From a virus (lineage: Monodnaviria; Loebvirae; Hofneiviricota; Faserviricetes; Tubulavirales): a stretch of 9,067 nt of DNA. The notes beneath the pieces were generated by a model that had not been told where the DNA came from, did not search any database, and saw nothing but the letters and a program-made list of their open reading frames with translations. Position 1 is the first letter of the stretch; each line of letters begins with the position of its first letter. Positions 3,181 through 9,067 of this stretch are shown here, piece by piece. Where the stretch lies: IMG/VR virus record IMGVR_UViG_2660238346_000022; one strand, given 5' to 3'. The position numbers and the translations under genes were made by a program.

Positions 3181-5422
<2,242 letters not shown>

Positions 5423-5555
5423 GACCTCATGTCCTCATGATGAAAGACAAAAAAGAACATACTCAAAAAACATCATGAACACAAGATGTATTAACAACAT
5501 TTGCTCAAGTGCTCTAGAGTACATGATGGCTAAATACAAAAAAGGGGGCTAAATA
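5423..5555. promoter_or_regulatory. Divergent promoter/operator region between the Rep operon (minus) and the RHH regulator gene (plus)
   Basis: AT-rich 133-bp spacer. Candidate minus-strand promoter: -35 TTGTGT (5484-5479), 17-bp spacer, -10 TATGTT (5461-5456). Near-palindrome gtgCTCTAGAGtac at 5509-5522; CATGATG/CATCATG motifs at 5436-5442, 5472-5478 and 5522-5528. Confidence 0.35.
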
Positions 5556-5756
5556 ATGGCTGAAAAAAGAAAGAGTTATAACGTGCCAAACGAGAAGTAT
5601 CTAAAGCTAGAAAGATTAGCTATTGATGCAAGTCAAAAGATAGGAAGGAGCATAAAATGGACCGAAGTACTGTCTTACATGATAGATCACTACGCAAAAG
5701 ACGCAGCAATAGATATGGTAAGTCAGGAAGAACTTAAGAAAAAAAAGGCAATGTGA
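5556..5756 (+). CDS. Ribbon-helix-helix (CopG/Arc-like) DNA-binding protein, putative phage repressor/regulator (66 aa)
   Basis: Strong RBS AAGGGGG 8 nt before the ATG. Sequence fits the RHH pattern: beta-strand KSYNV, helix A EKYLKLERLAIDA, turn with G-x-S (GRS), helix B IKWTEVLSYMIDHY. Transcribed divergently from Rep, as rstR is in CTXphi. Confidence 0.6.
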   Translation: MAEKRKSYNVPNEKYLKLERLAIDASQKIGRSIKWTEVLSYMIDHYAKDAAIDMVSQEELKKKKAM

Positions 5757-5819
5757 TCCCTTTCCCAACGTCAAACAAACAGGCCAGGAAAGATCAAAGG
5801 AAAAGTTAAACAAGGAAAT

Positions 5820-5975
5820 ATGCAGATAACCAGTGACTTAATCCTTGACCTGCTGATAAAGCATTTCGTTGTTGGCAGCATCACAGGCATGACAATATTC
5901 AGCCTGATAACGCTTGTCCCACCGTTGGTGATGACCATACACAAAAAACTAAGTAAGGACACTGAAATCCTTTAA
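5820..5975 (+). CDS. Small hydrophobic protein (51 aa) downstream of the RHH gene; not in the supplied ORF track
   Basis: ATG at 5820 preceded by AAGGAA; MQITSDLILDLLIKHFVVGSITGMTIFSLITLVPPLVMTIHKKLSKDTEIL; TAA at 5973-5975. Hydrophobic residues 7-40, charged tail. Followed directly by the 6010-6040 hairpin. Confidence 0.4.
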   Translation: MQITSDLILDLLIKHFVVGSITGMTIFSLITLVPPLVMTIHKKLSKDTEIL

Positions 5976-5980
5976 GGTTC

Positions 5981-6074
5981 AGTGCGCACAATGACGTTAT
6001 GTATAAAAAGGCCGCTGCGGTGGAGAGTATCGCAGCGGCCTTTTCAACATAACGCGTGTCACATTATGCGCACT
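5981..6074. other. Candidate XerCD-dependent attachment region: imperfect palindrome with dif-like arms flanking a hairpin
   Basis: 5981-5991 aGTGCGCAcAA (9/11 to the E. coli dif XerC arm GGTGCGCATAA); 5997-6007 TTATGTataAA (8/11 to the XerD arm). Inverted partner: 6042-6052 tTTcAACATAA and 6064-6074 TTATGCGCACt (10/11 to the XerC arm complement). Confidence 0.5.
6003..6044. terminator. Bidirectional rho-independent terminator-like hairpin
   Basis: Perfect 10-bp stem ggccgctgcg (6010-6019) / cgcagcggcc (6031-6040), 11-nt loop, flanked by ataaaaa upstream and tttt downstream, so each strand reads as stem plus T-run. Confidence 0.6.
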
Positions 6075-6127
6075 GACGTTGTGGTAGGTAAACTGAGATG
6101 CCGCGTCCTGATAATCCCGGTCGGCAC

Positions 6128-6850
<723 letters not shown>

Positions 6851-6903: not shown

Positions 6904-7005
<102 letters not shown>

Positions 7006-7078
7006 ATCAGACCTGCCAGTCCGGCAGGCAGGTGCAGTCCATGAAAACAAAGCGCGGATTAAGCTGCGGTGCACACTA

Positions 7079-7156
<78 letters not shown>

Positions 7157-7187
7157 GTAAGCTGGTTGACCATGTCAGCAAAGAGCA

Positions 7188-7272
<85 letters not shown>

Positions 7273-7306
7273 TGCCATCACAAGCGCAACTGAAGCATTC
7301 TGCCTC

Positions 7307-7341
<35 letters not shown>

Positions 7342-7390
7342 AGGTGCAGTCCATGGAAACAAAGCACGGATTAAGCTGCGGTGCACACTA

Positions 7391-7434
<44 letters not shown>

Positions 7435-7481
7435 CCATCGCCTGTACGCGTCGTGTTCTGCACAGCCAGTAAGCTGGTTGA

Positions 7482-7611
<130 letters not shown>

Positions 7612-7624
7612 AGTGTCCTCTGTC

Positions 7625-8830
<1,206 letters not shown>

Positions 8831-8843
8831 TTACCCCGCAAAA

Positions 8844-9067
8844 TTACTTGCCAACATTAAGCCCATTTGATTTAAATAAATCATAAACCAATCGATACAC
8901 TCTATCCTTATAAAGATATATGTATGAAATAAATTGAACATGGAGGATGATATTAAAGCAGTACTGAATATTTAAAGGCAGGTAACTGAATGCAACTACA
9001 ATAACATCGAGTTTATTAACATCGGAGATTTGACGAATAATAAAATTGACGGCAGATACAAGAGCAT
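8844..9067 (-). CDS. pVI-like protein, second copy, C-terminal part only (start lies beyond window end)
   Basis: Same sequence as 375-599 of the first copy, offset by 8469 bp after the 1-bp indel. Confidence 0.6.
   Translation of the reverse strand, partial: ALVSAVNFIIRQISDVNKLDVIVVAFSYLPLNIQYCFNIILHVQFISYIYLYKDRVYRLVYDLFKSNGLNVGK

Follow-up and report, generated by a model that had tools for sequence, protein, structure and literature searches.

We analysed a 9,067-nt stretch of viral DNA (hereafter the window; IMG/VR record IMGVR_UViG_2660238346_000022), which belongs to a dif-integrating filamentous phage (inovirus) of Escherichia coli, as a prophage or as a replicative form, and focus here on a small gene and the intergenic spacer beside it (positions 5423-5756). 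The gene (5556..5756, plus strand; ATG at 5556, stop at 5756) encodes a 66-residue protein, identical to WP_001409658.1, that is predicted to adopt a ribbon-helix-helix (RHH) fold. A Shine-Dalgarno-like AGGGGG, read from the sequence, lies 7 nt upstream of the ATG (5543..5548, plus strand). A 133-bp AT-rich spacer (5423..5555), predicted to hold divergent promoters and operators, separates the gene from a leftward operon. The first gene of this operon is a conserved small open reading frame (ORF) of 82 residues (5174..5422, minus strand; annotated in prophage L002), and it is followed by the gene for the replication protein Rep (3181..5181, minus strand), a P2 gpA-type replication endonuclease (Pfam Phage_GPA, E = 2.7e-48; annotated as a replication endonuclease in relatives) and the presumed target of regulation. 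A first-pass annotation of the window had described the RHH gene as transcribed opposite to Rep. The gene is indeed divergent from the replication operon, but its immediate neighbour is the 82-residue ORF rather than Rep.

The 66-residue gene is real and under purifying selection. A second copy of the module, in a different type of prophage (L003, strain RIVM_C037166), encodes the identical protein, WP_001409658.1. The two genes differ by 22 synonymous and 0 non-synonymous changes, with third codon positions 68% identical. The protein matches the PHROGs profile phrog_2503 (E = 7.4e-27, residues 1-64 of 65 profile positions), and it, the products of the other E. coli alleles and a Dickeya homolog match this profile over its full length with E values of 1e-26 to 1e-29. 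The profile carries no functional annotation in PHROGs, and our literature search found no paper describing this family. To phrog_2503 the present analysis adds a (predicted) RHH fold, a position divergent from Rep and cassette behaviour.

AlphaFold2 modelled the monomer (predicted local distance difference test score, pLDDT, 83) as two helices joined by a loop and preceded by an extended N-terminus. The predicted strand spans approximately residues 6-11 (KSYNVP), the helices residues 12-29 and 35-65, and the loop G30-K34; the two helices and short loop of the predicted structure are superposable on solved RHH monomers. In an alignment of 71 sequences, strand positions 8 (V/M/Y/I) and 10 (I/V) are hydrophobic, position 10 being strongly conserved, and positions 7, 9 and 11 are polar, the last two being hypervariable. 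This alternation of inward hydrophobic and outward polar residues is typical of RHH strands. The clusters from a library search (~100, at 50% identity) include natural tandem duplicates of the domain. One tandem duplicate (P0048; pLDDT 82.5, predicted template modelling score 0.73) was modelled as strand-helix-helix twice over, with DSSP strands at residues 14-20 and 76-82; we infer that the two strands pair with each other because the model contains no other strands. The top structural match of the tandem relative was F TraY. The modelling thus supports an RHH assignment at the level of the fold, and a match to a curated family failed: what the first-pass annotation had called a clear RHH signature holds for the predicted structure and is invisible to curated sequence profiles.

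Candidate operator sites in the spacer

The spacer has a GC content of 34.6%, against 47.9% for the window. Its core (5420-5528) is 94% identical to the corresponding sequence in L003, compared with 68% at the third codon positions of the adjacent gene. The start-codon region, a 22-bp palindrome (100%) and three candidate sites described below (A to C) are all kept in L003, up to one change in site C. Judged by this comparison, the non-coding core is under constraint. A mechanically called ORF of 43 residues inside the spacer was rejected, as it is frameshifted in L003. No terminators were found in 5100-6100.

Two back-to-back promoters are predicted in the spacer, with their -35 elements 6 bp apart. 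A consensus scan placed a rightward promoter for the RHH gene at 5491..5520 on the plus strand (-35 TTAACA, 5491-5496; 18-nt spacer; -10 TAGAGT, 5515-5520), and both hexamers are kept in L003. A leftward promoter for the small ORF-Rep operon was placed by pattern search at 5456..5484 on the minus strand (-35 TTGTGT, 5484 to 5479; 17-nt spacer; -10 TATGTT, 5461 to 5456, with a T-run after it), at a distance of 33 nt from the small ORF. This TTGnnn-17-TAnnnT-T-run layout recurs 32-43 nt ahead of the left gene in L003, L031, L004, L007 and L016 and 103 nt ahead of it in L010, and in each of these loci the local repeat sits within the 17-nt promoter spacer.

We judged the significance of sequence motifs against dinucleotide shuffles of the spacer. 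The first-pass annotation had named as a candidate operator a 14-bp near-palindrome (GTGCTCTAGAGTAC, 5509-5522, 6/7 pairs), which is present where it was reported and falls within chance expectation on its own (P ~ 0.10). It was rejected as an operator in its own right on this ground and for having no counterpart in the more distant alleles that share the window's Y-N-V strand (L010 and L013). A 22-bp imperfect palindrome that encloses it (TCAAGTGCTCTAGAGTACATGA, 5505..5526, 9/11 pairs) exceeds chance expectation (P ~ 0.008), and the whole window holds only two palindromes of this kind. The AT-rich spacer and the three heptamers listed in the same annotation were recovered unchanged, the latter as two copies of CATGATG (5436 and 5522) and one of its reverse complement, CATCATG (5471). 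The 9-kb window has four copies of the heptamer, three of them within these 93 bp, and the tetramer CATG occurs four times in the spacer (P ~ 0.006).

A repeat finder returned the heptamers as cores of longer inverted repeats, giving three 16-bp candidate operator sites. Site A (TCATGTCCTCATGATG, 5427..5442, minus strand) lies over the predicted 5' leader and ribosome-binding site of the small ORF, site B (CATCATGAACACAAGA, 5471..5486, plus strand) covers the spacer and -35 element of the predicted leftward promoter, and site C (TCTAGAGTACATGATG, 5513..5528, minus strand) lies over the -10 element and start region of the predicted rightward promoter. The reverse complements of sites A and C each match site B at 13/16 positions, and 0/1000 shuffles yielded a 16-mer with two such inverted partners. 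The centre-to-centre distances are 44 and 42 bp, about four helical turns. On the sequence evidence, these three sites around CATCATG cores are better operator candidates than the 14-bp palindrome.

Cassette exchange and family distribution

Breakpoints from blastn delimit an exchangeable cassette comprising the small ORF, the spacer and the RHH gene (5181..5816). Among other E. coli dif-prophages, the flanks of this segment (ending at 5180 and resuming at 5817) show 95-98% identity in L035 and L038-L040 and 89-92% in L037, and in all of these prophages 5181-5816 is replaced by unrelated sequence. The replacement cassettes encode other members of the protein family, with different N-terminal strands and spacer repeats of their own. 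The allele with strand residues KSIGISN is accompanied by spacer repeats GTGCAATTGTGCA, TTVRINE by CGCATGCG, and an unannotated KAIAITE by GTTAAC pairs; at least four alleles have distinct spacer repeats. Outside these prophages, a Dickeya/Yersinia group with TTMAIV has TRCATGTATRCA repeats. The proteins of L010 and L013 (57-58% identity, otherwise diverged) share both the window's Y-N-V strand and CTCATG(A/T)-type repeats. These patterns support the view that protein and spacer behave as an exchangeable specificity cassette with co-varying repeats.

The minimal unit common to the window and the Rep_trans-type prophage L003 is 5392-5766 (87%). The window allele is rare: of 5426 complete E. coli genomes, one has the full cassette and a further five have the 5392-5766 core (87%).

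In all loci that we examined and that have a recognisable Rep gene alongside, the homolog is divergent from Rep and lies at the inovirus genome end. These loci include Dickeya, Yersinia enterocolitica, metagenomic and IMG/VR contigs and Dulem virus 52, and the spacers in the loci that were read measure 131-195 bp. Further homologs occur in Pectobacterium, Xenorhabdus, Scandinavium and Vibrio cyclitrophicus phages, for most of which the reading covered the spacer or the small ORF alone. The adjacent Rep is gpA-type in the window, Rep_trans-type in L003 and G2P/CRI-type in Dickeya, Yersinia and others. Since three unrelated Rep types stand beside homologs, the small protein and its spacer travel independently of Rep, which speaks against a Rep origin in the spacer and against the protein being an accessory factor of one particular Rep.

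Individual loci depart from the simple layout. Phage If1 (L033, NC_001954) carries an intact, unannotated homolog of 63 residues (~5119-5310, minus strand; 50% identity, E = 1e-10) within its annotated 'major intergenic region' (4834-6039), pointing away from ORF348, the start of which is ~730 bp off. Two family members stand in tandem in E. coli AST205 (L038, 637-1217) and in L040, where an unannotated member (MKRKAIAITESTYL...) directly follows the Rep-side GTTAAC-repeat spacer and is itself followed by the TTVRINE allele and then by a 62-residue ORF (MPTKHINDVLW...); these may be stacked or recombinant immunity regions. In Yersinia enterocolitica (L007-L009, 6314-7048) the gene after the regulator homolog, on its strand, encodes a Fic domain, and in Dickeya and metagenomic contigs the genes in this place are unrelated ones of 138 and 369 residues, which suggests a variable cargo slot downstream of the regulator.

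Proposed role and alternatives

We favour the reading, to which we assign a probability of roughly 60%, that the 66-residue protein is an allele-specific repressor of the Rep operon that also regulates its own gene and confers immunity. Repression and autoregulation are proposed because of the positions of the candidate sites on the predicted promoters. The protein would bind sites A to C, with their CATCATG cores, in the spacer. Occupancy of sites A and B would repress the small ORF-Rep operon (and genes downstream), and site C, together with the 22-bp palindrome over the -10 and start region of the protein's own predicted promoter, would serve autoregulation. Such repression would hold replication and virion production low in the lysogen, and an incoming phage with the same cassette would be blocked, giving allele-specific immunity. 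Specificity would lie in the outward-facing residues of the N-terminal strand and the cognate spacer repeats, exchanged together.

Several results weigh against this proposal. At the level of sequence, a Pfam scan of the 66-residue protein gave no significant match (best DUF7753, E = 0.038), and across the 71 relatives all curated RHH profiles stayed below threshold, ParG being hit by 5 members (best E = 0.019) and RHH_9 by 1 (E = 0.011). Profile searches of the Protein Data Bank returned only ParG (E = 0.087) and TTHA0139 (E = 0.17) with the 71 sequences and zero matches with a 12-sequence alignment, and Foldseek returned nothing. In the spacer, the threefold occurrence of the heptamer is of modest significance for a single spacer (P ~ 0.06), the 16-bp site definition is post hoc, and both promoters are weak consensus matches, the leftward one missed by a stricter standard scan. 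The If1 homolog lacks the usual repeat-bearing spacer, so the family is not strictly tied to the divergent-spacer architecture. If1 is not known to form lysogens, and a tie of the family to lysogeny may likewise be absent. Because If1 holds a homolog, phrog_2503 proteins may exert a general control of replication-gene expression and not serve lysogeny specifically.

Extended to the whole family, the proposal becomes a wider one that we regard as evenly poised: phrog_2503 would be a widespread RHH immunity-repressor family of gammaproteobacterial inoviruses, whose outward, hypervariable strand residues and matching repeats are swapped together as a cassette of ~0.4-0.6 kb that moves between unrelated Reps and defines heteroimmunity groups among E. 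coli dif-prophages, with an overlooked copy in If1. By analogy, the cassette would be a convergent RHH-based counterpart of CTXphi rstR/ig-2. Divergent small repressors beside replication genes, and RHH repressors on mobile elements, are known already. If the proposal is true, phrog_2503 gains a function, and prophage immunity groups could be typed simply, as rstR typing does for CTXphi; dif-integrated filamentous prophages recur among the searched E. coli genomes and also in Yersinia, Dickeya and Xenorhabdus. The alleles would further provide a natural set of small orthogonal repressor/operator pairs, whose covariation of strand residues and repeats could inform recognition rules for RHH proteins.

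RstR of CTXphi is a helix-turn-helix (HTH) repressor, and the CTXphi promoter PrstA is LexA-controlled. The window resembles CTXphi in having a small regulator gene divergent from the replication genes across a short intergenic region with promoters (here predicted), in the map order attP (phage attachment site), regulator, intergenic region, rep, in a folded double-dif attP adjoining the regulator of a prophage found at dif, often in tandem, and in several regulator-plus-intergenic alleles between conserved flanks. In CTXphi, ig-2 is bound by RstR, whose repression of rstAB is confined to the cognate type, and rstR/ig-2 is polymorphic between conserved flanks, with multiple alleles (PMC11509585); two inverted attP sites next to rstR pair in the single strand (PMC4246890).

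The corresponding segment of the window (5981..6075) has a GC hairpin with an inverted dif-like site on either side (AGTGCGCACAATGACGTTATGT... and the complement of ...ACATAACGCGTGTCACATTATGCGCACT). It is predicted to fold as single-stranded DNA (-36.8 kcal/mol, z = -7.9) and, in the manner of CTXphi, looks like a folded attP used by XerCD for integration at dif. In L002 the boundary between prophage and host lies at ...ATTATGCGCAC, beside hipA, in the second dif-like site, and the prophage end falls inside ...CACATTATGCGCAC.

Unlike RstR, the window protein is predicted to be an RHH protein and has no HTH Pfam match; the two are unrelated in sequence and in (predicted) fold. The window's Rep is P2 gpA-type rather than RstA-type and is preceded by the extra small ORF. 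A search of 5423-5555 for a LexA box (CTGT-N8-ACAG, up to 2 mismatches) found none, and LexA control of the Rep-side promoter was rejected for this reason. Judged by predicted fold and Pfam matches, the 66-residue protein is not an RstR homolog; the comparative evidence supports a CTXphi-like logic served by a different fold. The parallel with rstR/rstA drawn in the first-pass annotation extends to the divergent layout, map position, allele polymorphism and folded attP, but not to the protein itself or to LexA.

A further comparison is with YpfPhi/CUS-1 of Y. pestis/E. coli K1, YpfPhi being the dif-phage of enterobacteria that is best known. A putative regulator, YPO2273, occupies the rstR position there, and RstR has been called a homolog of it (PMC4266046). 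These are likewise enterobacterial dif-integrating filamentous prophages (~8.7 kb) with opposite transcription directions around an intergenic region. By description, however, YPO2273 is an RstR homolog and hence belongs to another protein family (PMC4266046).

Arc and Mnt of P22 and the plasmid proteins CopG and omega resemble the window protein in size (~50-70 residues), in predicted strand-helix-helix architecture, in having a replication or lytic function as target, and in candidate operators that are short direct or inverted repeats overlapping the predicted promoters of target and regulator. The window protein differs in showing no significant similarity to any curated RHH family, in residing in an inovirus and in an inter-helix loop (G30...W35-T36) longer than the classical G-x-S/T/N turn.

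The alternative that survives best, though we hold it to be unlikely, is a CopG/omega-like copy-number controller that throttles Rep transcription of the episomal replicative form and has no role in lysogeny or immunity. The unannotated homolog in the If1 'major intergenic region' and the weak sequence resemblance to plasmid ParG speak for it, as does an omega-like RHH ORF, with a proposed role in maintenance or copy control, in the episomal Pseudomonas inovirus PMBT54 (PMC10534721). However, the examined E. coli, Dickeya and Yersinia members reside in integrated prophages, often in tandem at dif, and cassette polymorphism between conserved flanks is the signature expected under heteroimmunity selection. 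This alternative also overlaps with the repressor reading, because any trans-acting repressor of Rep also confers immunity. As to a ParG-type centromere system, no candidate ParA/ParF-type gene was found among the window ORFs or the annotated relatives, and the ParG matches are below threshold.

An activator of a divergent promoter, or a switch factor acting for example on downstream cargo genes, is decidedly less probable. It is compatible with promoters that are only predicted, as are the site positions relative to the true starts, and with the variable same-strand genes that follow the regulator (Fic in Yersinia, the 138- and 369-residue proteins elsewhere). Yet sites B and C lie inside predicted core promoter elements and site A over the leader and ribosome-binding site, positions typical of repression, and RHH regulators of mobile elements are overwhelmingly repressors (Arc, Mnt, CopG, omega).

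We give very little credence to an RHH-class type II antitoxin that would stabilise the prophage together with a downstream toxin. The Fic-domain gene in Yersinia enterocolitica and a mechanically called hydrophobic ORF of 51 residues at 5820-5975 could be taken as partners, but no partner is conserved: the downstream gene differs per lineage, lies 110-150 bp away or is absent, and the conserved partner of the RHH gene is the Rep-side spacer rather than a toxin. The segment 5817-6000 is backbone common to prophages without this allele and contains no annotated gene, and the 66-residue protein has no C-terminal toxin-binding extension, its predicted second helix reaching the end. A toxin role for the ORF at 5820-5975 was rejected, as it has no family match, is unannotated in relatives and lies in conserved backbone and not in the cassette.

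Just as improbable is a TraY-like role in which the protein, in place of transcriptional control, bends DNA at attP or the phage origin as an accessory to Xer recombination or Rep nicking: the UniRef name of a Dickeya member is 'Relaxosome protein TraY', F TraY is the best structural match of the tandem relative and the gene sits between attP and the Rep operon, but the TraY match reflects a common tandem RHH fold, the attP region is constant (97-98%) across cassettes, and three unrelated Rep families accompany this protein and spacer, just as one Rep accompanies different alleles, so that the spacer repeats track the small protein and not Rep or its origin.

Neighbouring genes and the rest of the element

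The stop of the small ORF overlaps the Rep ATG by 8 nt (ATGACTGA), an arrangement that suggests translational coupling of the two genes. Relatives of the small ORF lie at the same position in L003 (8840-9031), L013, L031 and L015, and it matches phrog_3104, a PHROG without known function, weakly (E = 6e-4). A word-indexed homolog search with the 82-residue ORF returned a single close relative; the family becomes visible through same-position reading and phrog_3104. Its members share the motif MxI[VI]Y[YF]D[YF]...G[IV]NA...EWDF..S[FV]DEL...SG.[FW].GY, of which the window copy is a divergent member, and they occur with gpA-type and Rep_trans-type phages and not with G2P-type ones.

Nearly all long ORFs of the window are on the minus strand, including a pIII-like coat protein (Phage_Coat_A), a Zot/pI assembly ATPase and the 666-residue P2 gpA-type replication endonuclease. 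Bases 1-598 recur at 8469-9067 with 99.5% identity, so the window covers slightly more than one unit of a genome of ~8.47 kb that is circular or integrated in tandem. The redundancy falls short of 100%, with about 3 mismatches in 599 bp, and neighbouring copies in a tandem prophage array would fit it better than a simple circular-assembly overlap. E. coli chromosomal prophages match the window at 95-98% identity over most of its length, and in strains TD225-C4 and RIVM_C037166 such prophages stand in tandem, adjoining hipBA. Searches of a phage collection gave zero nucleotide matches, either by megablast with the whole window or by blastn with 5100-6000.

Two further regions of the element or its relatives are rearranged. 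Where related prophages have an intact pIV/GspD secretin gene, the window has two repeats, one of 145 bp in tandem (4 copies, 99% matches) and one of 312 bp (1.9 copies, 94% matches), at 6264-6850 and 6904-7509. Several times over, the repeat units encode the signal peptide and N-terminus of the secretin, and ~0.9 kb of L002 is missing. The secretin gene of the window is either rearranged or mis-assembled. In JNE21-009 (L001, 11390-12355) and WP8-S18-ESBL-07 (L036, 8238-9203), the gene directly after Rep encodes an IS110-family (RNA-guided) transposase. On this phage backbone the transposase gene replaces the regulator cassette and attP, the element is inserted between ybiB and hcxB and not at dif, and the transposase end appears to be an alternative integration module.

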